A stretch of 63,956 nucleotides of DNA, filler included, from Chrysochromulina tobinii (GCA_001275005.1; 7 parts of 7 records of this genome joined end to end with filler, not necessarily neighbours in it); one strand, 5' to 3'. Positions 3,001-62,176 are shown, counted from the first letter of the whole stretch. Numbers and translations: made by a program. Notes: generated by a model not told the origin, from the letters alone.

Positions 3001-6000
3001 AAGGCACTGGCGGCGTGAATGAAGCTCGACGGCTGTGAACAGCGACGAAGCGTCGCACAGACGTCCGCCACGTCGCTCACGTCGGCGGCGCAGATGTGCA
3101 CGACAGTGCCCCCTTGAGATTGCAGCGAGCTCAGCTGCGCCTCGAGGCCCTGTCCGGTCCGAGCCACCTGCGCACTCCGAGCACCGTACTGGGCACCACG
3201 AGCGGCGAGCAGCACGTGTGCTGCCCCTTGCTGCACAAGCAGTCTTGCCGCAGCCAGCCCGAGGCCGCCGAGGCCTCCCGAGATGACGTAACTCTGGCCG
3301 AACGAGCCCGAAGAGGCGCGGCTACCCGCCGTGCATGCAATCGGGAGTGCTCTGCGCAGCCGAGCGACTTGAGGGTGATAGCCGAAGCATGCGAGCTCCG
3401 ACTCACCCGCAACGGTGCTCGTCAGCGCTACGAGTGAGCTTGGGTGAAAGCCCAGCCCGACGTCTGCCGTGATGACGCGGAACGGAGTGGCGTGCTCGTG
3501 ACGAAACACACGCATCAAGCCCCAAGCGCCGCCGTGGGCGCAGTCCGCCAGAGCGCGAGATGCATGCAAGCTGGGGGCGGCCTGCACGCTGCGTGTCAGC
3601 ACCAACAGTGCCATCTCGCAGCGGAGGTTCTCGTAGGAAAGTAACCGTACGGCTACATGAAGCAGCAGGATGGCGCCCTCAACGGAAGGTGCCGAAGTTT
3701 CGTGACCGGTGAGAACCACGGCCACAGCGCGCCACGCACCGAGGCGCAGCGGCGATGGCGCAGCCGCCGCGCTGCCTCTCCACCCCGTATGTAGCAGCAG
3801 CAGCGGAGGTGCACTGGAGGAGGTGCTCACCAGAAGGGGGCTATGGGCCATCGCCCAGCAAGTGGCATAGGTGCTGATGCGAGCGTCTCCCGCTCCAATT
3901 GCAACTCCAATCAAGGGAGGCGGCCGCCAATGAAACGCGCGCCGAAACTGTAACGGTCGAGGTCGCGATGAATGGTATGGGGGCTGGAAGGGCGGAGGGG
4001 ATGGAGGAGCGTTCATGTGCAGCAGAACGTGCGCGATCGTGCCGCTGAAGCCGAACGAGCTCACCCCGCGCGCGCCTGTGCACGCGCTCCGCACCTCCTG
4101 CGTTGGCAGCGCCAGCCGATCGCACAATGAGCCGAGCCGCGCCCTCACCAAAGGGTTCAACAGCCGCAGGCGCGCGTTGCCACACGCACGCTGCACGCGC
4201 AACGCCTGCAGCATGCCGTGCAGACCGGAGGCCGCCTCCGAGTGGCCCACATTCGCCTTGCCGCCGCCCACCGTCGCCGCTGCCAACCGAACACCGTGCA
4301 CGGACGCGAGCGCGCCAGCCTCGGTCGGATCGCCCAAGGCCGTGCCCGTGCCGTGCAGCTCCAGACCCACCACCTCGGACGCCGTGAGCGACGCACGGCC
4401 CAGCGCGCCCGTGAGCAACGTGCGCTGCGCCGACCCATTCGGCGCCGTCAGGCTCGCCGACCGACCGTCCTGACGCACAGCGCACCCGCACAGCACCGCG
4501 ATCGATCGCGCGTCGCCGCGCGACAGCACGAGCGCGCCCACACCCTCAGAGCGCACGTACCCGTCCGCAGCCGCGTCGAGCGTCTTGCATCGGCCGCCCG
4601 CCGACAGCATCCCCGCTTGCGACGCGATCAGCGCGCCGTGCGGCGACAGCTTCAGGCTCACCGCGGCTGCGACCGCCCATCGGCACTCGCTCAAGCACAC
4701 CGCGTGCGTCGCACACTGCACCGCCACGAGCGCCGACGAGCACGCCGTGTCCACGCTCGAGCACGGACCGTGCAGGCCAAGCACGTACGACAGCCGCCCG
4801 CTCGCCACCGACACATTGTCGCCCGTCAACGCGTACGTCGTGCCGCGCACCGACGGCGGCTGCACAAGCGCCCAGTCGGGCCGCTCGATGCCCACACACA
4901 CGCCGCCGTCGCTCCCCAGCAGCGACGCACGCCGCTCGGCTGCGCCGTGCAGCGCATCGTACCCGAGCTCGAGCACCAGCCGCTGCTGCGGGTCCATCGC
5001 GCTTGCCTCCGCCTCCGACAGCCCGAACGCGCTGATGTCCAGCAGCTCGGCGCCGAGCACGAAGCCGCCGTGCGGAACGCTCGGCGCCTCGGACGTGCTC
5101 CAGCGTGTCGCCGGCACGCGTCCGATTGCATCACCGCACGCCGCCTGCAGCTGCTCGTACGCTCGCTCGCTGCTGTTGCTCCCGGGCCACCGGCTTGCCG
5201 ACCCGACCACCACTATCGCCGTCGTCGCGCCCGAGCCGGCAGGCGTGCGGGCGAGCGCGGCGGACGGCTCGGCCGCACGCCCGTGCACATGATCCGCGAT
5301 CGCACGCGCGGTCGGCTGCTCAAAGACGAGCGTCGCCGGCAGCGCCACGCCAGTGAGCGCGCGCAGCTGCATCGAGAGCTCCGTCGCTGCGAGCGAGTCG
5401 ATGCCCGCCTCCATCAGCGGCGTGTCTGCACTCAGCGCGGCGGCGGCAGTCCCGCCAGCGAGCTTGCGCACGATGGAGACAATAAATTCGTATGGGTTTT
5501 TCCAGCTGCCTGCAAAGGGGCATGGGGCCTTTATGCTCTCTGTATCCGTATTCGTGAGTCTCTCGACGACCTCCATGTGTTTGCTAAGGGGTGCGCCTCG
5601 CACCCACGGGAGCTCCGTTGTCTGACCTGCGCCATGCGGCATGCGCATCGAGAAGGCGAGGCACGCTGCGAGTTCATCAAGTGTGATCGGGTGCATCTCT
5701 CTGAGCTGCCCGTCTGAAAAGACCCTGACGCTCATCCCAGCGCCGCTCACCGCAGGAAGCTGAAGGCTGGTGCTCACAAGACCTTGCATACGACGGTACG
5801 GGGCAAGCGAGTCCATGTATGCATTGGCAGCCGCGTAGCTTGCTTGACCAGCTTTGCCCAAAAGGGACGCCACAGATGAGAAGAAGCTCGCAGCCTCCAA
5901 CGGGCTCTGGGCTGCCGATGTGTGAATGTGCCATGCAGCGCCAGACTTGGGTGCAAACACATGTCTGAAGTCGTCAGCTGGCAAGAAGCGGAGCGTCTTG

Positions 6001-18651: not shown

Positions 18652-19824
18652 ATGGCGGAACATGCTGGCGACGCAAATACGGCGGCAATCGCCGCGGCGG
18701 ACGCCATCGAGCCGCTTGTGGCGGACGCCATGGGGCCGCTTGTGGCGCTCGTGCGCGACGGCGACGCTCAAGGCAAGGCCTGCGCAGCCGGCGCCTTGGC
18801 GAATCTGGCGGCCGGCAACGAAAACATCGGTGCCATCATCGCCGCGGTAATCGTGGCGGCGGGCGCCATCGAGCCGCTCGCGGCGCTCGTGCGCGACGGC
18901 GACGCTCGTGGCAAGGCGGACGCAGCCAGCGTCTTGGCGGCTCTGGCAGTCGGCGACGCTGCAAACACGGCAGCCATCGCCGCGGCGGGCGCCATCGAGC
19001 CGCTCGTGGCGCTCGTGCGCGACGGCGACGCTCTAGGCAAGGCGGACGCAGCCTTAACATTGGCGAAGCTGGCGAAGCTGGCGAACGGCGACAATAACGG
19101 CAGGTCGGCAGCGGACGAGGTCAGGGCGGCCGCAGCGACCGAGGGTCTGCCGTCATCGAGCAGCAGAGCGTACGCCTGCGACCACGAGGGCTGCGGCAAG
19201 CGCTTCACGCAATCGAGCGACCTCACGAGGCACAAGCACACGCACACGGGCGAGCAGCCGTACGCCTGCGACCACGAGGGCTGTGGCAAGCGCTTCACGC
19301 AATCGAGCCACCTCACGAGGCACAAGCACACGCACACGCCGGGCGAGCAGCCGTACGCCTGCGAGCACGAGGGCTGCGGCAAGCGCTTCGCCGAGGCAAG
19401 CAAGCTCACGAGGCACAAGCACACGCACACGGGCGAGCAGCCGTACGCCTGCGAGCACGAGGGCTGCGGCAAGCGCTTCACGCAATCGAGCCACCTCACG
19501 GCGCACAAGCACACGCACACGGACGAGAAGCCGTACGCCTGCGACCACGAGGGCTGCGGCAAGCGCTTCACGCAATCGAGCGACCTCACGAGGCACAAGC
19601 ACACGCACACGGACGAGAAGCCGTACGCCTGCGAGCACGAGGGCTGCGGCAAGCGCTTCGCGCAATCGAGCCAACTCACGAGGCACGAGCACACGCACAC
19701 GGACGAGAAGCCGTACGCCTGCGAGCACGAGGGCTGCGGCAAGCGCTTCGCCGAGGCAAGCAAGCTCACGAGGCACAAGCACACGCACACGGACGAGATG
19801 TTTTACGCCTGCGACTGTCCGTAA
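18652..19824 (+). CDS. Armadillo-repeat + 7x C2H2 zinc-finger protein
   Basis: Three to four ARM repeats ([17 protein letters not shown]...AAGALANLA), then seven C-x4-C-x12-H-x3-H fingers with TGEQP/TDEKP linkers. Confidence 0.88.
19171..19815 (+). repeat. 90-bp minisatellite encoding the zinc-finger array
   Basis: Units start at 19171, 19261, 19354, 19444, 19534, 19624, 19714, with a truncated unit at 19804; near-identical DNA. Confidence 0.97.
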
Positions 19825-25922: not shown

Positions 25923-27451
25923 TTGTGCGACATCGGAAACGGAGTGTGGGAGGTCGTCGACAGTGGCCGCGACTCCTCGTGTACCACGGCACTTTCATCA
26001 GGCCGCGTCAAACCGCACCCATTAATGAACACCGTCGAGATCACAAGCGCTGAAGACCAGGAACCTCGACGCCTAACCATCGAACCGGTCGTAGATTTTC
26101 CACCACGGTCAGTCAGCGGCACGCCTGTAAGCAAGCAGCCGGCGCTGGACCTCACGAAGCTGTGCAGCAACTTAAAGACTGGCAGTGACTTGAACTCGCT
26201 ACTCGAGGTCTCCCAGCTCCTCCACCAGTCCCGTCTGAAGAAGTCGTACGGAATGTCTGAAACCATGGTCATGCTCAACTTCCAGCTTCCATCTGCTACC
26301 GACGAAATGTCTGTGTCCAAACCTTTGACCGTTCGCAAGGGTGGCATGATCGACACGACATGCGTGAAGGATGTCATGGCGTCCTGCGCGTCCGCGGCGG
26401 AGGTGCCCGTCAATTGGTTTCATGTGAACACATTTCATTACGACGACACCCTCAAGAGCTCAGAGTGCCCTGACCTTAAGGCTCTCATCGAGATCGGCGA
26501 GGCGCTCGGCATCACCAGCGGCGTCATTAAGAATACGATGAAGAACTACAACAAGGGGATGATCTGCGCGGAATCAGGCCCCGATTGTGTAGGCATCGCT
26601 TTCGTCGACCTCGTGCGTGTGGACTCGATGGGCCAGGAGGTGCCCCCCCCGAAGCACCTCGTCCGAGCTCAAACCACAGGTGTGTTGAAGGGCCAGGAGC
26701 ACACTGAGACGTATCAAATGGGTGGCGAAGACGAAGCAAACAGCAAGGTGTCACACATCAAGACCATCGTGCAGCAGCCCATCGCGATCTTCTATTCCTC
26801 AAAGGCGAACACGTGCCTGTCGGTGCGCACCGCGCCAAGCGGCCTCGAGACGCACATGTGCCACTGGGGTGGCATTGTGAAGCAACTGGAGAGTAAGACC
26901 TCGCTCGTGCATAAAAAGATGGACGCCGCGTACCTGATGTTCCTCCTGATTGCTGAGGTAATCAACTCAATCGAGCCGCTGCTCAACACGTACGGAGATG
27001 CGCTCGACGGGCTCGATTTCCTCTTTGACGAGTTCGAGCCCACCGTACGGCGCAACATGATGTCTCGCAGAATTCAAAAGGATCTATGGGTGATCAGGCG
27101 CTGGGGCTGGCAGATGAGTACTACTGCGCAGGACCTCGCGGTGGACCCGTGGGACGTGTTCACCGATCATCAGGAGAAGCCGCTCAAGATGCTCTTGACG
27201 CAGAGCAACACTCTCGCGGAGACCGCAAGAGCGTACATTACGAAGGCGGACTCGCAGGAGGATTTCTTCAGCCAGACGCAGGAGCAGACGACCAACAACC
27301 TGCTCTTCAACCTCACCATCGTCACAATCGGCATGTTGCCGCCCCAGTTTTTCACGGGCGTCTACGGCATGAACTTCGTGAACAAGGAGAATGGGGATCC
27401 CGGCATCCCGGAGCTGATGCACCCTTATGGCTACCAGATCTTGTGGGGATG
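25923..27451 (+). CDS. corA: CorA/MRS2-family Mg2+ transporter, 3'-truncated (probable donor GTGCGT at 27452, then contig end)
   Basis: LTIVTIGMLPPQFFTGVYGMNF...IPEL (GMN signature). Start uncertain. Confidence 0.88.
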
Positions 27452-27469: not shown

Positions 27470-27512
<43 letters not shown>

Positions 27513-32700: not shown

Positions 32701-33609
32701 GGCGGCGAGGGCGAGGGCGGCGGCGGCGAAGGAGGGGGTCCCAAGCAAGTTGAGATTGGCCCGAAGACGTCGGTGAGGGTCATTCCGAAAGAGCAGACGC
32801 TGGCTCCAGTGTAAATGGGGCTGACATAGACATTCGGCCCCTGCGCAGCTGTGTTTGAGTGAATGGTGCTGGCCACAAGCGCAACGCTTGTGCCTGCGCT
32901 CGAGATCAAGAAGCCGCCTCCGTTACCTCCGGCCGTGTTGGAATAGACGTGGCAAGACGTGAACGTCACGGTACTAGAGATTCCATAAGCGCCTTGGCCA
33001 CTAGAGATGTAGACGCCACCTCCACTCAAATCATTATATTCTCCATGCATTCGATTTCCGAAGATGTAGACGTTGGTGAATGTAGCAGTGCCACCAAAGA
33101 TGCAGACGCCGCCTCCCCCATACCCTGTGTTGGAGAAGATGTTGCACGAAAGGAAAGTCACGTGACCATTCCAGATATGCACCCCACCACCCCAATCGCC
33201 TACATTGGAGTAGATGTTGCACGAAATGAAGGTCACGTGACCATTCATAACCGCCACGCCGCCACCATAATCAGTGACTTCAGTGTCGTAGCCTCCCGTG
33301 ACGTTGAGCCCGTTCAGGAGTACCACACCCGACGACCCGGGGTCGATGTTCACCACCTTGCGCTGATTCGAGTAGCTCGCTTGTGCATCCAGCACGACCG
33401 AGCCTGCCACCGCCGCCTCGAGGACGACGCTCCTGGTGACGCTGAGCACGGCGCTCAGGTAGTAGGTCCCGGGGGCAAGGACGATGCGGCCGACGGCGGT
33501 GTTGGCGAGTGCACTGGTCAGGCCGGCGGCCGTGCTCACCGCCGCGGTCCCCGGCGGATGCGGTGGCGGCGAGGGAGATGGCGGCAAGCGCGGCGGCGAG
33601 GGCGGCGAG

Positions 33610-46772: not shown

Positions 46773-49700
46773 TTATTGCGCCACCTCGACCTGTAGATCT
46801 AACGGCGTCGGCGATCGCTCCGACTCGACTGGTTCCGAGGCGGCCGGGGGCACAGCGTGGGCACCCGCGTTGCCGTGGGCGCCCGCGTTGCCCACCGAGG
46901 GCAATCGTGTGGTTGGCACCGCGACCGTCGCTGCCACCGTCGCCGCCATCGTGGCGCCCGAGGCGGCGGCGGCGGCCGACGGAGGGAGCGAGAGCGAAGA
47001 CGTCGGCGAGGGGGACGCGCCCGATCCAAGCAAGCGCTGCTCATCTTGACGCGTCAGCGGCGCATCGAAGACGTCATACACGACGCGCTTGAGGAAGCGG
47101 TCAGCATACACACTGGGAGGCACCGCTGAGATGCCCTGGCCGTCGTGCCACGGCGGCAGCCACACCTTACAGAAGTGCTCGAGTTGCTTGCGCAGCGACC
47201 ACGTCTGAAGCACGTCGACGAGGCCGAGGTAGTAAGACTGCGGCCCTTCGACGATGATGGCGTACTCAACAGAGTGCGAGTACGGGCGGTTCGGACTCTC
47301 GGGTCGGGACTGGCAAGCGGCGGCTGGGGCGGCGGCTGGGGCGGCGGCTGGGGCGCCGCCGCCCGCGCTGCCACGTGGGTGCGAAGACACGAGGAGAGGC
47401 GAGACGGTGCCTAGCACGGCGCCCGCGAGCGAGCACGAGGCACGCGGACTGACGCCGCTGCCCTGTAGAGCGCCGTATTGAGCGCCCGCGAGCGAGCATG
47501 AGGCACGCGGACTGACGCTGCTGCCGCCGCTGCCGCTGCTGCCGCCACTGCCATCGCGAACGATCGGGAACAACGAGAGGGAGGGCGCCGCAGTGAAGGG
47601 CGCGTGTGGCGCGTGCGGGCTGCTTGTCGGCTCGGTGCCGTCGATGGGCGTGAGGTGCGTCTGTCCTCCATCGGTGTTGACGACGAAGCGGCCGCGGCGC
47701 ACCCCGACGACGAGGGAATAGTCCATCGTGTGAAGCGTGTTCGACAAGAAGGCGACGTCGGTGGCCATCTGGCGGCGCAGCTCGGCGAGACGGCTCGATG
47801 AGAGGTGGAGGCAATAGTTGAGGTCGTTGTCCTTCTTGACGGTGTGGGGATCTTTGGGCCGCGAGGAGTTGCGATTGACCCACGAGCCCTTGAGGTCATA
47901 CCGCTCATCCATCTCGGGCAAGTGAGACTCGGCCAACGGTCTCATGGGCGCGTGGTAGAAGACGTTGCCCATCACGACGAATGTCATCGTGGTGTTGTAC
48001 ATCGAGATCGAGTACAGTCCGTAGAACTTGGTCAGGTACGAGCCCGGCTGCGCGCGTAAGTACTCCGTGTACTCGGGCGCGTGAGCCGTGAGGATGGCCG
48101 CCTCTGAGCTGTCGATTGTCTTGACAATCAGGCGCCGATCGTGCGTGTAGTACATGAACGAGCCGCTCTTCCCCTCGGAGAATCGCCAGCGCCCACCCCG
48201 GCCCTCCTTGGAGCGTCGGATCCACACCTGATGAGGCAGGCAATCAAGGGTGTCATCCGAGGTCATCCGAGGTCATCCGAGGTCATCCGAGGTCATCCGA
48301 GGTCATCCGGGGTCGTCAGGGGTCGTCCGAGGTCATCCGAGGTCATCCGAGGTCATCCGAGGTCATCCGAGGTCATCCGAGGTCGTCAGAGGCCATGGCC
48401 AGAGGCCCTTCATCCACACCTGGCCGCCGGAGAGCAGGGAGGCGAGATAGACGCTGGGATGTACGCCCTCGGCCTCACGCATCTGCCGAAAGGGCCCCGG
48501 GTGATACTCGACGAACTTGAAGGGCGGCCCGCCGCCCGCGAAGAAGGCGATCCATGCCGAGGACGAGAAGAAGCTACACACCTGATGAGGGAGGCAATCA
48601 AGGGCGTCATCAGAGGTCGTCAGAGGTCATCAGAGGTCATCAGAGGTCATGCCGAGGACGAGAAGAAGCTACACACCGACGCCGTGAGACGCGAGAAGAG
48701 CCAGCGCCAGGGCCGGCCGTGCCCGCGCTCCTCGAGCATGCTGGCATCGATGCACCCGACACAGTCTATGTCCGGAGGCACGCGCCGTGTCGGTGCGTCG
48801 GCCACGCGCGGGAGCAGCTGCTGACCCGACGCTGAGAGCCGTTGCTCGTCCAGCGCGCTGCCGATCGACAGGTGCACGGCGCCGAAGCCGCTCGCGCCGT
48901 CCGTGCGCGGCATCACGGTGCGTGTGGACGAGATGCGAGGGCTATCGGTGTCGGGGCGGATGGAGGGGAGCATGACGATGCGCTGCGCCGAGTGCTCCCT
49001 GGGCGTGCCCGCCGCCTCCTCGGCCGCCTCGACCGCCAGCCGGATGCCAAGCTGCGTGTATGAGAGCCATTCCTCCCGAAGTGCCTCGGGCATGTCCCAC
49101 GCGCCGATCGCCTTGCGCTCGCGCGGTCCGCCGCCTGGGCTGTGCAGCCCGCGCTCCGCCTTGATATACCGGTGCGCGGTCAGGTGCCACACGACCGCGT
49201 TGAGCCCCCCCTTGCTCGCGATCGTCAGGCCCATCAAGGACCAGAGTGCGCCCGCTTGCCAGTCCTTGCCGGCAGAGCCCCAATGCCACATCGGGTAACA
49301 GTGCACCATCAGGGCGAGGTAGATGATGGAGGCGGCCATCCAGTACACGACGCCGGTGCCCACATACAGGATCAGGTCCTTGATCGTCTGCAGCCGCACC
49401 TCGTACGTCGCCTGCAGCCCTTCCCACAGGCGCGCCGTCGCGAAGAGCACCGACAAGATGCAAAACGTGAGGATGGCGATCACCCACACATAGAAGAGGA
49501 ACCACATGGCGGACTGTTCAGTACTCCAGTCAGTGGCGCGGTCCCACACGTGGCTCGTGGTGCAGTTCTCCGACGGGACGATCGCCGACTCATCCTGACG
49601 AATCCAGCAGATATTGATCGCGCTCGCCCCTTGCATGTTGGTCGCCAGCAGGACGACCGCGGAGGCGAGCGAGCTCAGCCACACGGCCGCGTGGTACTTG

Positions 49701-50173
49701 GGCTGGATGGGTGAATAGGGCCGAAACGGCTGCGTGAGCGAGAGGCACAGGTCGAGGCAGATGACAAGCAGCCACATCTCCGAGGCGAACGCGGTGAATT
49801 GAGTGTAGAAGGACATCGCTGAGCACAGCCCCTGATACTCGGGGAGCTCGCCCCAGAATGTTTGATCGTCGTTGACCGAAGCCTGCACGAAGAAGGTGAC
49901 GAGATATTGGAGCGCGAAGAGCAAATCCGTGACCGTGCGCCAGAAGAGCAGCGAGAGCGGCGGCCGGCGCACGCTATGGTACGTGCAGTACTTGTAGATG
50001 ACGTTCGTGCATGCAAGGCACGAGACCACCGCGCCGGCGAAGAGCGTGGCCTGGGTCAGCACGACCGAGGAACTGGTGGGAATCTCGGGCCCGATCGGCT
50101 CGAATGGAGCCGACGGCGGAAAGGGCTGCGACGGAACAAGGTCCGGGGGTATGGTAAGGTCGGGCGACGCCAT
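46773..50173 (-). CDS. GPCR-PIP kinase fusion (7TM + phosphatidylinositol phosphate kinase); exons 50173-48677, 48581-48420, 48227-46773
   Basis: Seven hydrophobic helices with ICWI motif; PIPK motifs FKFVEYHP, SEGKSGSFMY, IVKT, YDLKGS, KDND, MDYSL, GLVDVLQ. Two GT-AG introns join the three ORFs in frame. Confidence 0.93.
48228..48419 (-). other. Intron (192 nt, phase 0) made mostly of ~14 copies of GGATGACCTC
   Basis: CAG|GTGTGGAT at both junctions; ends CCCTTGATTGCCTGCCTCATCAG. Confidence 0.92.
48582..48676 (-). other. Intron (95 nt, phase 0) whose first 29 nt duplicate the start of the downstream exon
   Basis: CATGCCGAGGACGAGAAGAAGCTACACACC at 48553-48582 and 48648-48677; 10-bp repeat filler; ends CCCTTGATTGCCTCCCTCATCAG. 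Confidence 0.9.
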
Positions 50174-50267
50174 CGTCAACAACTTCACACTCGCGTGATG
50201 AAGTTTTTAGGAACTCACATCAACTGGGAGTGAACCCTACAAAGGACTACGGTTTGAACGCGCAGGG

Positions 50268-51395
50268 ATGTCCACACCTCTCATCAAATTTCCCGCTTTT
50301 TCTCCACGACCCCTCCGTCTTCGCCTTCGCCTCCGGCCTCCGATGACGGTCCGCACGCGGACCGTCATGTACAGTCTTCGCAGCCTCGACCAGCTTTCCA
50401 ACGACGAGCTCGTGCGCGTGCTCTTTCACCTCAAGATTGGCGACCTCTGCCGGTTTGCTCAGGTCAGCAAGCACTGTTCGGAAATCGCAAGCGCGAATGA
50501 ATTGTGGGCGGCGCGCGCGCGCAACATTTGCATAAGCTACTCTCTCGATTGGCACCATTTCGAAGGCAACTTTCTGGACGGAGTGAAGCATGATGGAGGA
50601 AATCTGCCCATATACAGTGGACCGCCGCTCCGCATGCCATATCTCACCGTGGAGAACGACGCAACCAAACTTGGCGATGAGGGTTTGCTGTACCGCTGCT
50701 ACCCCTCCTCCCAGCAGGGCCGCGCAAGGAAAGACCGCACCGACCATGTGTGGATTACGTCCAAGTTTTCCGTGACCTGCTGCGGTGCACACTTTGCCTC
50801 TCGCTCGGTGTTCGAAGAGCACCTAGAGGATATACGCCACTACGAGCGCATGCAGGATGCTCGTGGGCGGAGCCCGTCGTTCGACATCAGCATCGACCCG
50901 CGTATCCTCTATGGGAAGGATGGCTTCAAGTCGATGACGATGCGTGAGCAGTACCGAGAGATGCGCAGCTACGTCGACGCGATGCTGCCCGAGATTGAGG
51001 CGCGGTGTGACCCATCGAGGTGGAGCGAGGATGAGCTGACGAACCTGCGAAGGCTCTCGAATGAAGGTCTTTCCTTCATGGACGAAATCGTTGCCGTACA
51101 CGATGACGAGGACGATTACTTCCAGAGCCTTGTCGAGACGTGCCGCGAAAACCTCATGCCTCTGGCCATCGGCGAGCACATCTGTGACAATGTTCTCCAG
51201 ACGTTTAAGCATTCGGGCGTGTACAGCTGGGCTGTTCCCTACTTGACGGTGCGAGACTTCCTCACAGACGGCCTGGCCCTGTGCGATCCCCACGGTGGAT
51301 CGGCCTCGGGTGAGCAGTGGTTTAGCGGGATCAGCGAGCTCTTCGAATTGCACTACAATGGCGCGTTCAATGACGAGGACGGTTCCGAGGACTGA
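50268..51395 (+). CDS. F-box protein with a possible Zn-binding motif
   Basis: LDQLSNDELVRVLFHLKIGDLCRFAQVSKHCSEIASANELW; CCGAHF...EEHL...H. Start may be 50343 or 50367. Confidence 0.8.
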   Translation: MSTPLIKFPAFSPRPLRLRLRLRPPMTVRTRTVMYSLRSLDQLSNDELVRVLFHLKIGDLCRFAQVSKHCSEIASANELWAARARNICISYSLDWHHFEGNFLDGVKHDGGNLPIYSGPPLRMPYLTVENDATKLGDEGLLYRCYPSSQQGRARKDRTDHVWITSKFSVTCCGAHFASRSVFEEHLEDIRHYERMQDARGRSPSFDISIDPRILYGKDGFKSMTMREQYREMRSYVDAMLPEIEARCDPSRWSEDELTNLRRLSNEGLSFMDEIVAVHDDEDDYFQSLVETCRENLMPLAIGEHICDNVLQTFKHSGVYSWAVPYLTVRDFLTDGLALCDPHGGSASGEQWFSGISELFELHYNGAFNDEDGSED

Positions 51396-51544
51396 TGACG
51401 ACCCTCACGTGTCGTCCCTCTCTTGATACGGTACTTGGTGTTTTGGAAGAAGCATGTTCAAAAGTTTCATTTGAATGTGTGTGAACGTGAACGTTGTTTC
51501 GCGCCCCTCGGCGCCCTGATTCAAGAGGCCGAAGGCGCTCAGGC

Positions 51545-54500
51545 ATGTCTTCACCTTCGCGCTCTCCGTCGCGCAAGAGCCCGAGGCTGCTCGCCCGGCA
51601 GGAGGCGGCGCAGCAGGCAGCCAGGTGCATCGCCTCTGCCGTGCGCAGCCGTGTGTGGTGCGAGGCGCGCACCCTCGACGAGCCACCTCGGTCCTACTAT
51701 TACAACTTGCAGTCTGGCGAAACGGCGTGGACGCTGCCAGAGGGCGCGATCCTGCGTTCCGCCGGGCGCGATTCGCTCATCCCACGCCCGGGCGACCCCA
51801 TCAGCAGGCAAAGCTCCTTTGCCCGCTCAAGCTCTATGGCCAGGCAAAGCTCCTCCAAGACTCGCTCCTCAGTGGCCTCCGTGACTGAGGAGGCGACCGG
51901 CGACAACGGAGCCGCAAATACCGTCTCGCCAACAGAGGACGCCGTGGTCGCTGCCGTGGGCGCTGATGCCGTCGAGGGCGGTCCTCCGCTCGAGCTGCAC
52001 GAGGTGCTGCAGCTCCTCTTCTCATGGCTACAGGATACTCGCGCCCTCTATTCGGAGAGCCGTGCAGACCTTGAGCAGCTGCGCACGGCACACGCCGACG
52101 ACGTACGAAGCGCGCAAGGGGCCATCGCACAGCTCGCGCGCAAACACGCGTCCTACACGAAGTGCCTCAAGGAGGAGCTCGCTCTCGTGCGCAAGGAGGC
52201 GGCCACAGCCAAGGAGGCCGCGGCCGCGTCCATGGCGGCCGGATCGCCCAGGCGGCGCGCGAGCTTCGACGAGATGAATGCGAGCTCGTGGGCGGCGGAG
52301 GTGGAGCGGTTACGCGATGGGCTGCGCAAGGCAGAGGCTCAGCTCGTCCATGAGCGCGAGGCTCGCGAGCTGCTGCTGCAGGAACAGGCGGAGGCCGATC
52401 GCCTCCGCGCCGAGGCGGCCGCTGCGCGCGAGCAGGCTGAGGCGGCCGAGGCGGACGCGGGCGCAGAGAGGGGGAACGAGGCGCTGCACGAGGAGCTCGC
52501 ACAGCTGCGGGAGCAGCTTTCTGCCAGCATCTCCGCCGCATCCGAGGCGGCTGAGGCGCGCCAAGTCGCCGAGACTGACGCTCAGGCTGCGAGGCACGAG
52601 GCCGCTGCAGCGCGGACTCAAGCGCTGATGGCAGAGGCGGCGGCCAAGGTCGCGGAGGCTGCCGCCAGGGAAGCAGAGGTATCCGCCAGAGCTGAGGCGG
52701 CGGCCTCGTTCGAGGAGGCGCACGCGAGCGCGTTGGCGGCCGTATCCAAGTGCCAGGCAGACACGGAGCGGGCATCGGGCGGTCTCATCCGTAGCGAATG
52801 GCGCTTCAAGGGGGAGCGTGCGAAGGTGCGACTCGCCGAGGCGAAGGCGATGGAGCTTTGGGTGCCCTCGGACCGCGCGCATGCAATTGCTCACCACGGC
52901 GCCCTCTCTCCCCACAGGTGCGACTCGCCGAGGCGAAGGCGAGCGAGGCGGCGGCGCGCGCAGGCGCGGTGAGCAATGCGCTCGAGCACCTGCGCCTCAA
53001 GCATGCCAAGACGCGTCGAGGAGCTCGACGAGTACAAGGGTAGCGTGCGTGTCCTATGCAGACTCCGCCCCCTCAAGCCCGGCACCGAGGAGGCGCGCGG
53101 GCCGTCGGCGGTCGTCGCGCCGCCGCCGCCTGAGGGCGGTCCGAGCCGCTCGGTAGTAGTGCAAGCACCGAATGCGAGCCAGACAGTGGGAGGCAGCATC
53201 AAGACCTTCGAGTTTGACGGCGTCTTCGCGCCGGAGGCTTCTTCGGCGAGCGTCTTCGAGGAGCTGCAGCCGCTCACGCGCAAGGTCGCCGCCGGCGCAA
53301 CCGCCGCCATCCTCGCCTACGGCCAGACCGGTAGCGGCAAGACGTACACGGTGAGTGCCCTGCACAATCTCGCCCTGCGCGAGCTCTGGGCCGGCGAAGC
53401 CGCCAACGGGGGCTCCGCCGCCCTCGCTGTTAGCCTGGCAGAGGTGTACATGGATGAAGTGCGCGACCTCGGTCGCCCGGCCGACCCGATCCCCGCGGCC
53501 GGTACTAAATTCGCCTTCGGCAGCGCCGTGGCCAGCGCCGGTGTCACTCCGCGCTCGTCGGAGGTGGATGCAAGTACGCTGACGTGGACCACCGTGACGA
53601 GCGCCGAGGCGGCATGCGCCCTCGTGTCGAGCGCGCTCGAGAGGCGCGTGACCGCCGATAACGGGCTCAACTCGGTCTCGAGCCGCTCGCACTTGATCAT
53701 CTTCTACGCGCTGCTCGGCCCGCGCGGTGAGCGCAAGGGGCAGCTGGCCCTCGTCGACCTCGCCGGTTCCGAGCGGCTCGGTCGTACCGAGGCAACGGGT
53801 GGTCTGCGCGACGAGGCCATCTCGATCAACCGATCGCTCACGGCACTCGGCGACGTGCTGCACGCGCTCGTGGGCAAGACGGAGCACGTTCCCTACCGGC
53901 ACTCGAAGCTGACCACGCTCCTCCAGCCGTGCCTCAAGCGCGGTGCGCGCGTCGCCCTCATCATCGCCGCGTCACCCTCCTCGGAAGATGCCCTCGAGAC
54001 TATTCAGACTCTCGGCTTCGGCGTGCGCGCGCGCAACGTGCACCTTGGCCCTATGGCGAGCACGTCGTCGGCGGCTGGCGGCGCTGCTGGGGGTGGGCTC
54101 CAAAAGGAGGTCGCACGTCTCCAAAAAGAGCTCGTCGAGGCCAAGGCGCAGGCAGCTGCTCATGAGCGGAGCCTGGCGAGCTTCAAGCAGCAGGCGAGCT
54201 CGACGGACGAGGCGGCCAAGGGTAAGAGTGAGGCGATCAAACGTGCGGAGGCCAAGGCAAAGGAGGCGGAGCACGCTCTCAAGCGCAGCGAGGCCGCCGC
54301 GCACGCGGAGCGCTCGCGCCTTCTCAAGGAGATGGAGGAGCTCCAGCGAAAGCTTGACGTCGCCACGAGCCGCGCGCGCCGTCCTGAGCGTCCTGAGCGT
54401 CCTGAGCCTTCCGCCCCGGCCGCTCTGCCGCAAGCCCTCTCCGCGCCCACCACGGCTCGGCAGCCGCGGCTGGCGCCGGCCGAGGCGAAGAAGGAGGCTC

Positions 54501-56056
54501 GCGCTCCGGCCGTCGAGGCTCCCAAGCCAAAGCAGCCGTCCAAGGCGGTCGTGGCGGCTACCAAGGCTGGTGCAGCGCCGACTAAGGCGGCAACGGCCGT
54601 CGCCACGGGCGGGGCACCGGCCGACGCGGCGGCGGCAGCCGAGGTGGCAGCAAGCGAGTCAGCAGCGGCTGAAGAAGTCGCAGCCGAGGCATTCGCGGCG
54701 CTTCCGACGTGCCACGTGGCAGTGGACGAGGGCTCACCGCGCCGCCAAATCTCATGTGCGGCGGCGGCGGTGTGCATGGGCTACGCATGCTCGTGTGGAG
54801 TCTACGACGAGGTCTCGCCAGCCGTTGGGGGGGAGACAGAAGCACCACCGGCGTCCCTTACGACAGAGTCCCTGCCATACGACCCCGCGGACATGGAGGC
54901 AGCGGCTCTCATGTCCTTCGTGGGGCACGAGGCCGCTGCGGTGCTCGAGGCCGCTGCGGCCGCGGCTCGCGCGGAGGTGATGCAGGAGGAGAGCCAGCCT
55001 TCGTCATCGCCTCGTGGCACGCTGCGCGGTACCGACAATTGGCCGCAGCAAGTGCTGAAGCGCTTATCGGCCGTGCAGGATAGCGTCGTGCCGCCGGGCG
55101 CGCCTCTCTCTCCTCGGCGCGCGTCCCTGCTCAACATGCCCCCCTCGCAGGCCGGTGCGAAGCCAGCGACCGTTGAGGTCGACGGCGTGAGCGACGGCTG
55201 GGCGGTGCCAAGCCGCAGGGAGTCTGGCGGCTCAAGCAGCGTGATCAGCGGGCTAAGTGCGACGAATGAGTCGACCATCTTCGCCCACCGGCTCGACTCC
55301 GCTCGAGAGGCTTTCAACGGCACGCCCGACATGGCGCTCGACGCATGGCTTGAACCTTCGGAACGCTCGGAGATGCTCGATACGTCTAACGAGACGTCGC
55401 TGCGCCTGAGCACATCGCCGCTGGTCGCGCATCTGAACGAGCTGCTGGCCGAGGGCAAGGCCGAGCAGGTCGCCCCATCGCTCGATGATCGACTCGCGGC
55501 AACCGACTCAATGGAGGATATGGTCCGGGAGATGCTCGCGAGCGCGCGCGCCACCTCCAAGGACACCTCGTTTCTCGAGGACCGTCCCTACGGCAAAGAG
55601 GTGGCCGACTCGGGCGCAGCAGACGAGACTCATGAGCAGCACCTCGCCGTGACCTTCGCGCTGCTACCGCATGAGGCCGCTCTCGCATCGCCTGCAAGTG
55701 CCCCGCGCACGACTCCCCGTCACGGCGGCTCGCGGCCGACTGTTGCCAAGACGCCCGGCTCGCAGCATTCGCACAGCGCCGCGCGCACCCCGGCGAGTGC
55801 CTCTGCGAAGACGCCCCTCGCCCCCCTCGTCCCGCGGCTCGGCCTGACGCCAGGCTCCGCAAAGCCGCAGCGGAGGCCGCTGCAGAGCACCCCGAGCTCG
55901 GGCGCTCCGCTCACATGCCCCTCGCGTGTGCTTGTTCGAGCTCAGACGGCAGAGGAGCCGCTTAGCGCGCGCACGCCCACTGAACAGCGCACGCTCGCTC
56001 AGACCGCGCGCACTCCGAAGGCCGTTTGGGCTCCACCAGAGAAGGGCTGGCGCTAA
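51545..56056 (+). CDS. Kinesin (kinesin-14-like neck) with N-terminal WW domain and coiled coils; intron 52826-52917; apparent +1 frameshift near 53016
   Basis: WW: WCEA...YYYNLQSGETAWTLP. Motor: KGSVRVLCRLRP, GQTGSGKT, SSRSH, DLAGSER, HVPYRHSKLT. Confidence 0.88.
52826..52917 (+). other. Intron (92 nt, phase 0) whose first 25 nt duplicate the start of the downstream exon
   Basis: AG|GTGCGACTCGCCGAGGCGAAGGCGA at 52824-52850 and 52916-52942; acceptor CCCTCTCTCCCCACAG. Confidence 0.85.
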
Positions 56057-60461: not shown

Positions 60462-62176
60462 GCAGCATGACGCCGAAGGCGATGCGCACCATCGAGATGG
60501 ACCGGCACCGCCGAGGCAGCGTAGCGAAGCGCGTCCCGACGAACGCCAAGCGCGACGTGACTACGCGCACGTTCGTTCCGGGCAAGGTGTTCGTGCTCGA
60601 CGCGGCGACCTACCCGGCGCACGGCGTGGTCAAGCAGATCCCGGATCGCCGCGGCGCGGCGCCACCCACGTGCATGCTGCACGCTTGGGACGACAGCCCC
60701 TCGGACTTCGGCTACGGCATGAACATGTCTAAGCACACCGTCGACGACTGGCTTGTCTTAATGACCATGGTCGTCGTCGAGGAGAAGGCGTTAGGGCACA
60801 CGGTCGACGAATTCAAGCTCGACCGGGGCCCCGAGCTCGACTGCGACGAGCTCAAGCGTCGCGTCGAGGCAACGCTCAAGGTCAAGGTGACCATCGGCCC
60901 CTCGGGCGAGCACGAGTCGGTGCACAAGGCGGAGGCGCACATGGACCCGTGCAACCGAGCGACGGAGGCCATGATCTCGAGGGCGAAGCGCAACCTCGGC
61001 GACAACGTCCGGCGCTTCATCGCCCTCGCCCGAAAGTACGCGGTGTGGCTCGCGGTGCGCCGCCCGGCCAAGATGGGCGAGCCGACGAGGATGCAGCGCC
61101 ATACGGGCAAGGTCCCGGACTTCGGGGACAAGAATGGGATGATCCCCTTCGTGTTCGGCACGAAATGCGTGAGGCTCAAGGACGAGCAGGAGCGCATCGG
61201 CTGGAAGGGCGCGGGCAATCGCGTCGCCGACGGCATTTTCGTGGGCATCGACCACACCTCGTACATGCTGTACAATCCGACGACCAACCGGATCACCCTG
61301 GAGCCGTACATCTGGCCTCTCGACGAGTTCGAGCTGGCCACGGACGGCACGGCCGCGGGCGCGCTGAGGCACGACGTCGCCATCCAGTGCGAGCTGAGCA
61401 CGGCGGCGCCCCTCGTCCTCCTGCCGAGCGCGATCAAGGCGCCCAAGGAAGCGCCGCCGCCGGTCAAACAGGCGGACGCGCCCGTCGGCACGCGCCTGAC
61501 GGTCTTCTGGCGAGGCAAGGGCACGACGGATCAGTGGTACGCGGGCACGGTCACCAAGATCCACACGACGGCCAACGGGGAGCTGCGGCACGATATCGTC
61601 TACGACGTCGACGGCGGCATGTACCCGCGCCACGACCTCGTCAACGTATGGCGATGGAAGCGCCTCGACGAGACCGCGACAGTCGCCCAGCCAGCGCACG
61701 CGCCAACGGCAGCGCAGCCGGCGACAGACGCGCCCAAGGCAAGCTCGCCGCAGCAGCCGGCGTCGTCCGCGACTCCGCCGCCCTCCGCCGACACCGACGG
61801 CTGGATCACGCCGAACAAGCGGCGCACGACGCGCGTCACCAAGCAGGTGGCACCGCCGCAGGAGCCGCCCCGCCGCTCGACTCGCGTGCCCGGGCTCGCC
61901 GCCCAGGAGATCAGCGTAGCCGAGGTCGTCATGTCCGCGCTCGAGCGCACAGAGGCGACGCCGGTGGCGGCGCAGGCGATCATCGACAACGTGATGGGCG
62001 ACACCGCGCCCGAGTCGCAGAAGGGCGACTCCGTCGTCGACAAGCTCGCCCGCGTCACGGACGTCGCCTTCGACTGGAAGGTCGACCTCGGGCTGCTCCT
62101 CGACTACGGCGACGAGGCGAACGTCGTTCAAGTCGAGTACACGACCGAGTCGGGCGCAAAGGCGATGCACGACGAG
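60462..62176 (+). mobile_element. Ty1/copia-type LTR retrotransposon pol fragment: integrase core, SH3-like region, Tudor-like domain; open at both ends
   Basis: Putative D (VLDAA), D (KLDRGPE), x36, E (HKAE); copia-type FVFGTKC...GIFVGID...SYMLYNP; linker PRRSTR. Confidence 0.8.

Follow-up and report, generated by a model that had tools for sequence, protein, structure and literature searches.

Introners, groups of similar introns at non-homologous sites, have been described in several forms. In Symbiodinium family 1, Polarella glacialis classes 4 and 5 and the Aureococcus type, the acceptor lies in the insert and the donor, G(T/C), comes from the target duplication, which in the accounts cited has a fixed length of 3-9 nt (4 or 8 in the named classes) and usually accompanies terminal inverted repeats (PMC9860276; bioRxiv 10.1101/2020.10.14.339549). 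Haptophyte families 37-108 nt long are listed for Emiliania, Chrysochromulina sp., Prymnesium sp. and Pavlovales (Gozashti et al. 2022 and 2025), with duplications of 2-5 nt where these are given; one five-copy Emiliania family is noted as having '10bp terminal direct repeats', and the cited parts of the same screens list zero families for Chrysochromulina tobinii. Daphnia neointrons carry repeats of 4-12 bp (33 cases) around fillers that are, in the cited account, mostly unique sequences (PMC4202315). Intron transposition by reverse splicing has been proposed for fungal introner-like elements (as cited in PMC9860276).

The window (the whole stretch of C. tobinii DNA analysed, 63,956 nt) holds four introns to be set against these systems (Table 1). 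The first-pass annotation had described direct repeats of 30, 27, 11 and 5 bp across their junctions, and all four were found where it had placed them; its statement that these introns are in phase 0, with downstream exons beginning GTG, was likewise borne out by the flanking open frames and the sequence. Two of the introns interrupt a receptor-kinase gene with a strong PIP5K match on exon 3 (E=6.6e-65, Pfam) and weak, sub-cut-off 7tm_1 and 7tm_2 matches on exon 1, and a third is predicted in a kinesin gene (E=1.9e-63, Pfam). The host of both genes is an alga of high GC content.

Table 1. Positions of the introns, their host genes, junction repeats and internal modules in the window (a slash marks a splice junction or RNA joint).
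Feature	Position	Strand	Evidence
PKS-gene intron, 221 nt, phase 0	1966-2186	-	flanking open frames
Host gene 1, seven-transmembrane receptor fused to PIP5K lipid-kinase domain	46773-50173	-	Pfam, open frames, RNA joints
Host gene 1 exons	50173-48677, 48581-48420, 48227-46773	-	open frames; all three joined in RNA contigs
Intron, 95 nt, phase 0, family 1	48582-48676	-	RNA joint 48552/48648
30-nt direct repeat, upstream copy, gives GT donor of the 95-nt intron	48648-48677	-	100% identity to 48553-48582
30-nt direct repeat, downstream copy	48553-48582	-	100% identity to 48648-48677
Family 1 conserved acceptor module, gene strand reads CCCTTGATTGCCTCCCTCATCAG	48582-48604	-	pattern match
10-bp tandem units, 4.5 copies, gene-strand unit contains CTGATGAC	48606-48650	-	tandem-repeat analysis
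Intron, 192 nt, phase 0, family 1, sister of the 95-nt intron	48228-48419	-	RNA joint 48219/48412
11-nt repeat CAG/GTGTGGAT, upstream copy, donor side	48412-48422	-	exact match to 48220-48230
11-nt repeat, downstream copy, acceptor CAG and exon 3 start	48220-48230	-	exact match to 48412-48422
10-bp tandem array, 14.5 copies, within the 192-nt intron	48252-48396	-	tandem-repeat analysis
Family 1 acceptor module, second copy, G variant	48228-48250	-	pattern match
Host gene 2, coiled-coil region then kinesin motor, open-frame limits	51491-56056	+	Pfam, frames
Predicted intron, 92 nt, phase 0, family 2	52826-52917	+	reading frame
27-nt exact repeat, upstream copy, AG/GTGCGAC...	52824-52850	+	identical to 52916-52942
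27-nt exact repeat, downstream copy	52916-52942	+	identical to 52824-52850
Family 2 acceptor module, ..GCATGCAA.TGCTCACCACGGCGC, C-rich tract, CCCCACAG	52879-52917	+	DNA depth, core count

Each of the three repeat-flanked introns begins with a duplicate of the start of its downstream exon, followed by filler: 29 and 66 nt in the 95-nt intron, 8 and 184 nt in its 192-nt sister, and 25 and 67 nt in the predicted kinesin intron. The downstream 30-nt copy, for instance, comprises the last G of the 95-nt intron and the 29 nt with which exon 2 opens, and retention of that intron would bring a TGA into frame at 48649-48647. Splicing of the 95-nt intron (a skip of 95 nt, cut at +29) is seen in RNA contigs from 2/6 runs (X14, X15), and that of the 192-nt intron (a skip of 192 nt, cut at +8, GT..AG on the minus strand) in 4/6 (X13, X14, X15, X17), with one contig (X15 record 8) lacking both; contigs from X13 and X17 extend into the 95-nt intron as far as 48623, so the unspliced form is also present. 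The junctions proposed earlier are thereby confirmed in RNA for the receptor-kinase gene and not for the kinesin gene, where no RNA contig from the six runs bridges 52826-52917; this intron is therefore predicted from the reading frame, which runs on into the motor only if the intron is removed and an extra base at 53015 is dropped.

The fillers had been taken for unrelated sequence, a view that must be abandoned, as they belong to high-copy families. Those of the receptor-kinase introns share a 23-nt acceptor end (two matches in the window against 0.00 expected) and 10-bp tandem units, in which CTGAT resembles a branch point; each of these two introns is the other's closest tail match (0.87, against 0.70 for the runner-up), and CCCTTGATTGCC occurs only in them, 2 of the 159 family copies described below. 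A hammerhead-bearing retroelement, considered on account of CTGATGAG, was rejected after a permissive Rfam scan of 48100-48800 returned only two sub-threshold, unrelated matches. The kinesin intron ends instead in the family 2 module, which has a DNA depth about 70 times that of its flanks and at whose start, 52879, six X1 contigs meet; the core of this module occurs 34 times in 197 kb (loci and window). Overall, filler DNA depth is approximately 100-1000 times exon depth. The PKS intron contains an 11-bp tandem array at 2043-2155, with units that include CTGATG, and a search of it for the family 1 end motif found none; its junction repeat is limited to AG/GTG, which is at chance level, as the first-pass annotation had allowed. 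This intron is possibly an old relative of family 1.

A scan of metagenomes with the exact 19-nt acceptor end of family 1 recovered at least 141 loci, the 214 matches being reduced to 159 non-redundant terminal copies with differing flanks. As the search pattern fixes the 3' 19 nt, the exactness of this end is partly by construction; the local exon copy that starts directly behind it is not. Such a duplicate begins 88 of the 159 introns, compared with 5/159 when partners are swapped, and family 2 behaves similarly (8/17 sites against 1/17 in the control), so that the suspected process of intron generation with long target duplications is supported. Among repeat-bearing family 1 copies, the repeat is 8-88 nt long (median 25) and the intron 38-202 nt (median 77.5). 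In 81/88 the repeat copies are separated by 15-190 nt of non-exonic family filler, which does not fit tandem duplication of AGGT as conceived by Rogers, where the intron is duplicated exon only; the other 7/88 have zero filler and are whole-unit tandem repeats. An open frame crosses the joint in 34/57 simple copies, and 23/88 copies directly follow another at a single junction, a form of tandem re-iteration. Repeat and filler lengths are anticorrelated (Spearman -0.50 to -0.61; conditional tau -0.25 to -0.34), which is tentatively attributed to selection on intron length. Similar introns thus stand at no fewer than 141 non-homologous loci, while removal with the frame kept is observed in the RNA joints of the two receptor-kinase introns only.

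The two ends of these introns differ in character. In every copy, the 3' splice site coincides exactly with the end of the module, which is built of CTGATG-type units of 10 nt, then pyrimidine-rich sequence and CAG; the periodic units precede the terminal 19 nt, and the tail closes in ..CCTCATCAG, without a run of A. The 5' end is ragged, with no consensus among 58 simple copies in either the first 12 filler positions or the end of the duplicate. The earlier suggestion that the 5' splice site is duplicated coding sequence holds in these copies, where the duplicate provides the donor (+1 G in 54/58, +2 T in 49/58); the target site is AG/GTRMG (-2 A in 35/58, -1 G in 45/58). Because the exon duplicate supplies a GT or GC donor, splicing restores the original message. 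Orientation within loci is uniform for family 1, with 45/45 adjacent match pairs on one strand, and 30/35 family 2 cores are on the same strand as family 1 matches. Tail identity is 0.52 for 28 same-locus pairs at different sites, 14 of which come from locus L118 and are not independent, and 0.33 for 12,514 other pairs (permutation p<1e-4); neighbouring copies are, to judge from their sequences, sisters.

Comparison of 53 related locus pairs gave zero indel pairs and no empty site, so the presence/absence polymorphism hoped for was not found and insertion is deduced from the footprint. Six locus pairs of 94-99% identity have introns and repeats common to both members; perfect repeats, previously taken as a sign of recent events, therefore need not be very recent, being shared by pairs 1-6% diverged. 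In one pair, the same 1-nt difference between two assemblies appears in both copies of a short junction repeat lying within a longer intron.

What is copied may be judged from two cases, one of a whole intron and one partial. The intron at L118 is the entire intron of L090, including 29 nt that at L090 are coding exon of a DAO domain; the flanks are unrelated, with no alignment outside the intron, and L118 has no local repeat. The copy starts and ends exactly at intron boundaries. The L136 daughter consists of the final 39 nt of a neighbouring intron and is read as including part of the neighbour's exon-derived duplicate, the duplicate being scored as 13 nt only. As a daughter may carry exon-derived sequence of its parent, the unit of copying is the intron and not an element that has its own two termini. 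In no case was a copy found to run past the acceptor into the parent's exon, and the 71 remaining copies have offset-repeat scores near those of the control.

The best reading of these observations is an introner-like family that multiplies by copying of the intron itself, with RNA as the likely intermediate. More specifically, the three repeat-flanked introns of the window belong to two high-copy families, in which a short acceptor-end module directly follows a duplicate of the opening 8-59 bases of the downstream exon, and new copies would arise when intron RNA is reverse-transcribed where the target exon is broken, a reading to which a probability of about one half is given. The template would be a spliced-out intron RNA or splicing intermediate, since the acceptor AG is exactly where such RNA ends. 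A nick or break lying 8-59 nt into the exon would prime or capture synthesis, causing the exon start to be copied a second time, and selection would then retain only AG/GY insertions and introns of approximately 60-100 nt. On these terms, the footprint offers a rare view of the origin of new introns.

A more speculative version, to which only minor weight is given, has introns copying themselves via the splicing machinery, as a lariat-3' exon intermediate or a reverse-spliced lariat that is subsequently reverse-transcribed. The free 3' end of the lariat would be reverse-spliced into an AG/G site, in the same nascent transcript or in exposed sense-strand DNA, and reverse transcription would begin at a nick situated a few dozen bases into the exon. 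If correct, this scheme would account for the exact acceptor boundary, the variable-length second exon start, the lost 5' part of the intron, the sense-only orientation and the spread to nearby sites, as well as for pile-ups at existing junctions, where forward splicing would provide the intermediate; it would also be the first natural footprint of spliceosome-linked intron retro-copying.

An error of DNA repair or replication is the alternative that merits most attention, although it too is considered unlikely. Here a staggered break or stalled fork in an exon would be followed by fill-in or by template switching onto a nearby family intron, of which the 3' part is copied; resumption upstream of the point of departure would duplicate the exon start, and selection would retain only products ending in a working acceptor. 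Copying is local, neighbours being sisters, and some of the variable 5' junctions show, by eye, microhomology with the 10-mer unit over 3-5 nt (the 95-nt intron of the window, L025, L090 and L136); both features fit DNA-level template switching just as well as copying through RNA. The re-iteration of copies at one junction also suits such a process, and the exon repeats of Daphnia neointrons have been ascribed to staggered breaks in the sections cited (PMC4202315). However, the acceptor AG is the 3' boundary of every copy, and a DNA template gives no reason to stop there, so that selection alone would need to explain it. The copy of L090 at L118 is likewise bounded exactly by intron ends, and the identical 19-nt end across the surveyed loci implies long-range spread as well.

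A dedicated SINE-like retroposon, inserted by target-primed reverse transcription with a LINE endonuclease and reverse transcriptase and tolerated in genes only where spliceable, is a doubtful explanation. SINE and LINE retroposons classically leave duplications of variable length and are truncated at the 5' end but conserved at the 3' end, and all three features are displayed by these copies. Moreover, families derived from non-LTR elements make up about 5% of classified introners in the cited parts of PMC12130899, whose supplement places one Pavlovales family among them. Against this, the copies lack an A-rich or LINE-like tail and any head or promoter region, the longest being 10-mer arrays only, and daughters hold exon-derived sequence of the parent that the transcript of a master element would not. 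Nor is such strong local sisterhood expected from a diffusible RNA, and the proportion of copies directly behind another is, by a rough, uncomputed estimate, far above that expected of a 4-nt target.

Although the majority of described introners are of the DNA-transposon kind, a cut-and-paste, MITE-type element with a transposase making unusually long staggered cuts is highly improbable: the variable duplication, spanning 8-88 nt rather than one fixed length, and the missing terminal inverted repeats bring it close to refutation, and there is also no fixed 5' terminus, no consensus at the start of the filler, and a parental duplication that travels with the copy. An artefact, whether from misassembly of the repeats or from chance matching in GC-rich DNA, can hardly be entertained, for although no short-read DNA contig spans both copies of a repeat pair and at least one base of the window, at 53015, is in error, exact repeats of 27-30 nt cannot be due to chance, spliced RNA contigs come from 4/6 runs, the footprint recurs across many independent metagenome assemblies, and the swapped-partner control is low (5/159). 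The assembly itself could be checked in part, each repeat copy being anchored by its own unique flanks in DNA contigs of two runs (X1 records 5, 6 and 8, and X6), record 5 placing the downstream copy 48553-48582.

These families share some features with several known systems and lack others. As with retroposons inserted by target-primed reverse transcription, duplications vary, the 3' end is constant and the 5' end truncated; unlike SINE and LINE copies, they have neither an A-rich or LINE-type tail nor a head region, and spread locally with parental exon sequence. Intron transposition by reverse splicing, with which the yeast intronogenesis experiments belong, shares the donor-to-acceptor intron as copied unit, the sense orientation (45/45) and the location in transcribed genes. 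The copy of L090 at L118 has precisely this form, a whole intron and no local duplication; yet it is the one case that fits, since the classical model yields whole introns without duplication, whereas most copies here are 5'-truncated and 88/159 carry a long exon duplicate. Daphnia neointrons resemble them in repeated events at one site (PMC4202315, in the parts cited), but the repeats described here exceed theirs in length, and the filler belongs to one or other of two recurrent modules, present at 141 loci or more. Haptophyte introners are similarly families of short introns, although with shorter duplications where the screens give them (Gozashti et al. 2022, 2025), and the Chrysochromulina family illustrated there has the opposite layout, with its donor in the insert and its acceptor from a 4-bp TSD. 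With the Symbiodinium, Polarella and Aureococcus introners, as described in the sections cited, the families share a multi-copy, short form, ordinary GT-AG splicing, an acceptor at one end of the insert, a phase-0 bias, an AG/G target and a donor from the duplicated target. They differ in duplications whose length changes from site to site (8-88 nt, median 25), in the lack of an inverted terminal repeat, in the ragged 5' end and in that the parent's duplication may be copied along. The contrast that the first-pass annotation drew with described introners therefore stands in degree and mechanism, the long, variable duplications differing from the 2-10 bp given in the published accounts cited, and falls in kind.

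The direct repeats that the first-pass annotation had reported across the junctions of four introns are all present (30, 27 and 11 nt, and AG|GTG; see table), and the phase 0 assigned to these introns is borne out by the flanking open frames. Two of them lie in a gene combining receptor-like and lipid-kinase domains (48228-48419 and 48582-48676), one in a kinesin gene (52826-52917) and one in a PKS gene, within GC-rich eukaryotic DNA (~60-70% GC). The seven-helix receptor-like part of the kinase gene corresponds to weak 7tm Pfam hits, with its exons joined in RNA contigs, and searching the protein Atlas with the kinase protein returned PIP5K clusters, one of which is mostly Haptophyta. One Atlas entry, at 46776-48227 on the minus strand, begins at residue 25 of exon 3, this residue being read as M; the public gene call for the kinase appears to start just past the 192-nt intron, with the upstream exons missed.

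Introns, repeats and host genes in the window
Feature	Position	Strand	Remark
30-nt direct repeat	48553-48582 = 48648-48677	- (gene strand)	100% identity
27-nt exact direct repeat	52824-52850 = 52916-52942	+ (gene strand)	Repeat comparison of window
11-nt direct repeat	48220-48230 = 48412-48422	- (gene strand)	Repeat comparison of window
PKS intron	1966-2186	-	Repeat is AG|GTG alone
Minor GT..AG candidates, 10-11 nt common to both junctions	3627-3808, 26403-26639, 52004-52492, 54644-54688, 60587-61111		Short
Receptor-like membrane domain and PIP5K lipid-kinase domain, one gene	50173-46773	-	Pfam PIP5K E=6.6e-65
Coiled-coil region and kinesin motor	51491-56056	+	Pfam Kinesin E=1.9e-63

The junctions proposed for the two kinase introns, either of which introduces an in-frame stop if kept in, are corroborated by metatranscriptome contigs from which both are spliced out. 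Joint 48219|48412, which skips 192 nt and conforms to GT..AG on the gene strand after an 8-nt shift permitted by the repeat, occurs in runs X13, X14, X15 and X17; joint 48552|48648, where 95 nt are skipped and the shift is 29, occurs in X14 and X15, and a single RNA contig (X15 record 8) is without both introns. RNA contigs of X13 and X17 reach beyond exon 2 into intron sequence (48582-48623 of the 95-nt intron), so that unspliced RNA or DNA is also present; these contigs could represent retention, pre-mRNA or DNA carry-over. The kinesin intron is predicted from the reading frame, the RNA contigs of the six runs leaving 52781-52993 uncovered: the frame runs into the motor only when 52826-52917 is removed and one base at 53015 is dropped. 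This base, which is additional to the sequence of the DNA contigs from runs X1 and X6 and of an X14 RNA contig, breaks the kinesin frame and is therefore probably an assembly error. As for the proposal that the repeats be confirmed by sequences spanning both copies, every copy is anchored by its own flanks in short-read DNA contigs, and no contig covers both members of any pair. Of the 19 joints in the DNA contigs of X1 and X6, 15 were listed, and joined, intron-less forms were absent among these 15.

Other repetitive tracts were also encountered in the window. A candidate intron at 33157-33231, with a 15-nt repeat, was rejected as part of an imperfect tandem repeat of 75-nt period (33100-33300) that is likely, judging by its sequence, to be coding. 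Many false GT..AG repeat candidates originated from a 90-nt tandem array of 7.2 copies at 19169-19815, the unit of which, read by eye, may be a C2H2 zinc-finger repeat, and 27471-27512 consists of 42 C without interruption.

The part of each intron behind the exon-start duplicate, here termed filler, had been described as unrelated DNA; this proved wrong, in that fillers belong to recurring families. The two kinase introns have in common a 23-nt acceptor end (two window matches against 0.00 expected) and contain 10-bp tandem units, in 14.5 and 4.5 copies. Their acceptor module defines family 1, the copies of which have a tail reading ..TGATTGCCTCCCTCATCAG, while that of the kinesin intron, family 2, comprises ..TGCTCACCACGGCGC, a C-rich tract and then CCCCACAG. 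DNA contig depth climbs by a factor of ~100-1000 in the fillers at 48262-48804 and of ~70 at 52787-52967, around the kinesin intron. A 19-nt family-1 end was found at at least 141 loci (prefixed L below) in public metagenome contigs, from both culture-derived and lake assemblies, and the family-2 core occurs 34 times in 197 kb of loci and window; at L075, family-1 units are combined with a family-2 end. The introns are short and two thirds of their sequence consists of low-complexity units, the remaining third being unique, so that they can escape gene finders and introner screens based on similarity. A hammerhead ribozyme, suggested by CTGATGAG, was dropped after a permissive Rfam scan of 48100-48800 yielded no more than two unrelated matches, both below threshold. 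At one locus represented twice (L011:601-749 and L056), the 21-nt acceptor module is arranged head to tail, up to three in a row, and an entire 88-nt intron unit is duplicated. A 66-nt tandem repeat at L071:1-260 and the exon copy in an intron at L096:250-275 have an exact 18-nt word in common.

To characterize the footprint, counts were drawn from the window, the at least 141 metagenome loci and the contigs of the sequencing runs. The family-1 set started from 214 motif hits among the matches listed. Hits lying within 60 nt of the upstream end of a locus or 45 nt of its downstream end were discarded, as were those with element-like words in the next 25 nt and near-duplicates, defined by agreement of 90% or more across 70 nt. 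This left 159 non-redundant terminal copies. The idea that introns begin with their downstream exon withstood comparison with swapped pairs: among the matches listed, the intron 5' end equals the downstream exon start (score at least 8) in 88 of the 159 copies, versus five of 159 when downstream exons were exchanged between loci. Early-mismatch repeats are present in a few of the remaining 71. In family 2, eight of 17 non-redundant copies score at least 9, versus one of 17 in the control. Still among the matches listed, repeats are 8-88 nt long (median 25 in repeat-bearing copies), introns 38-202 nt (median 77.5), and of the 159 copies, 107 have a downstream exon starting with GT and 26 one starting with GC. 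'Simple' copies, with filler of at least 15 nt and no copy directly before, make up 58 of the 88 with repeats. Their insertion site is AG|GTRMG (A at -2 in 35, G at -1 in 45, G at +1 in 54, T at +2 in 49); the repeat is perfect in 25, and its two copies mismatch at 56 of 1,423 positions across all 58. A rough frame call on 57 simple copies, 23 of which gave no call, put phases 0:1:2 at 21:7:6, in agreement with the phase-0 bias remarked upon earlier.

The two ends of the filler differ in character. The acceptor end adjoins the local exon copy exactly, and neither the filler 5' end nor the end of the duplicate has a consensus in the 58 simple copies; a fixed filler start, as expected of a branch-point stop, was rejected on the lack of consensus at the filler 5' end. 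Adjacent hits within loci, among the matches listed, are on the same strand in all 45 pairs, and 30 of 35 family-2 cores share their strand with family-1 hits. Copies can be stacked, 23 of the 88 lying directly behind the CATCAG of another copy, and in stacks at L121, L118, L011 and L006 it is the exon-adjoining unit that matches the exon best. Repeat and filler lengths are anticorrelated (Spearman -0.61 in the 88 copies, -0.50 in the 58), which persists in a truncation-aware measure (tau -0.25 to -0.34), and total length is without correlation to repeat length (-0.13 and +0.07); we assume the anticorrelation to reflect selection on intron length.

Particular copies point to what is being copied. 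The L118 intron is a copy of the whole L090 intron with unrelated flanks, and holds 29 nt that constitute the duplicated exon start at L090, in a gene with a DAO domain (matched by Pfam in both exons); no local repeat was found at the L118 site. At L136, the daughter filler corresponds to the final 39 nt of the adjacent intron; part of this stretch is read from the sequence as that intron's own exon-derived duplicate, interrupted by an internal insertion, the scoring having given that duplicate only 13 nt. Overshoot into the parent's exon was not found among the remaining copies examined. Together with the exact abutment of the acceptor, these copies and the lack of overshoot argue that the copied unit is bounded by splice sites rather than by ends of its own. 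It appears to be the intron itself, with parent and daughter distinguishable.

We therefore favour, at a probability of about 0.5, RNA-mediated, break-primed copying of intron sequence, insertion being read from the footprint. The template would be the RNA of a spliced-out intron or a lariat-exon intermediate, either of which terminates precisely at the acceptor AG; this most simply accounts for a 3' boundary that is exact where the 5' end is ragged. The new copy would either be primed at a break lying 8-59 nt into the exon or be captured there, giving the exon start twice, and the only insertions to survive would be those whose duplicate starts with a usable donor. As the DNA occurs in runs labelled mixed-culture metagenome, this mechanism is likely open to direct test.

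The copies show local spread. Tail identity is 0.52 between different sites of the same locus (n=28 pairs, half of them from one locus) versus 0.33 between copies of different loci (n=12,514 pairs; permutation p<1e-4). The tails of the two kinase introns, which are separated by 162 nt, match one another better than any other copy, at 0.87 with 0.70 for the next best, and CCCTTGATTGCC is common to these two alone among the 159 copies listed. DNA-level template switching or staggered-break repair, with a nearby intron as template, would account just as well for this local spread and for the microhomologies at junctions, but leaves the exact acceptor boundary to selection, and we consider it a distinctly less probable route. 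A classical SINE with a LINE partner, which also fits the footprint, is somewhat more doubtful again: the copies have neither tail nor head, and it fits neither the presence of parental exon sequence inside daughters nor the local spread. No inverted termini were seen in the copies examined, and a cut-and-paste MITE is nearly excluded, an artefact even more nearly so.

Presence/absence alleles, proposed as a check, did not materialize: none of 53 related locus pairs differs by an intron or offers an empty site, the window's own genes being covered by none of the loci among the matches listed. Locus pairs of 94-99% identity have their introns in common and differ only by point changes and a 10-nt unit. 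The latter distinguishes the intron tandem arrays of the orthologous loci L058 (285-300) and L129, which are 94% alike, with point differences concentrated in the intron units. In two assemblies of another locus (L126:400-500 and L132), both copies of the short GTA(G)AGTG junction repeat bear the same 1-nt difference, which suggests that the repeat was copied anew or that the site underwent parallel events.

Where new spliceosomal introns come from has long been an unsettled question. Most introners described so far are transposons whose duplications are short and of fixed length, and we know of little natural evidence for RNA-based intron transposition; a preprint reportedly deals with lariat-to-circle conversion and intron transposition, related work being said to include Huff et al. 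2016, Li et al. 2009 and yeast intronogenesis. The footprint seen here, an intron beginning with its own downstream exon, is long, site-specific and easily read. In the parts of the published sources available to us, a 2022 introner screen gives duplications of 3-9 bp and both layouts of splice-site recruitment (PMC9860276), and dinoflagellate introners have fixed duplications of 3, 4, 5 or 8 nt, classes 4 and 5 carrying the acceptor while a GHNN duplication supplies their donor (10.1101/2020.10.14.339549). The same portions of the literature assign ~5% of classified introner families to non-LTR retrotransposons (2025 screen, PMC12130899) and describe exon repeats of 4-12 bp at Daphnia neointrons (PMC4202315). 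Haptophyte rows in the available 2022 and 2025 supplements (PMC9860276, PMC12130899) list duplications of 2-5 nt or none determined, and one 5-copy family with '10bp terminal direct repeats'; Chrysochromulina tobinii is entered with 0 introner families. Haptophyte introners with long duplications resembling this family were not found in that accessible literature, and we accordingly take the window families to be a new form of established introners: they have the same layout as acceptor-carrying introners, but are unlike known ones in their long and variable duplication, in having the intron as the copied unit, in their local spread and in their stacking.
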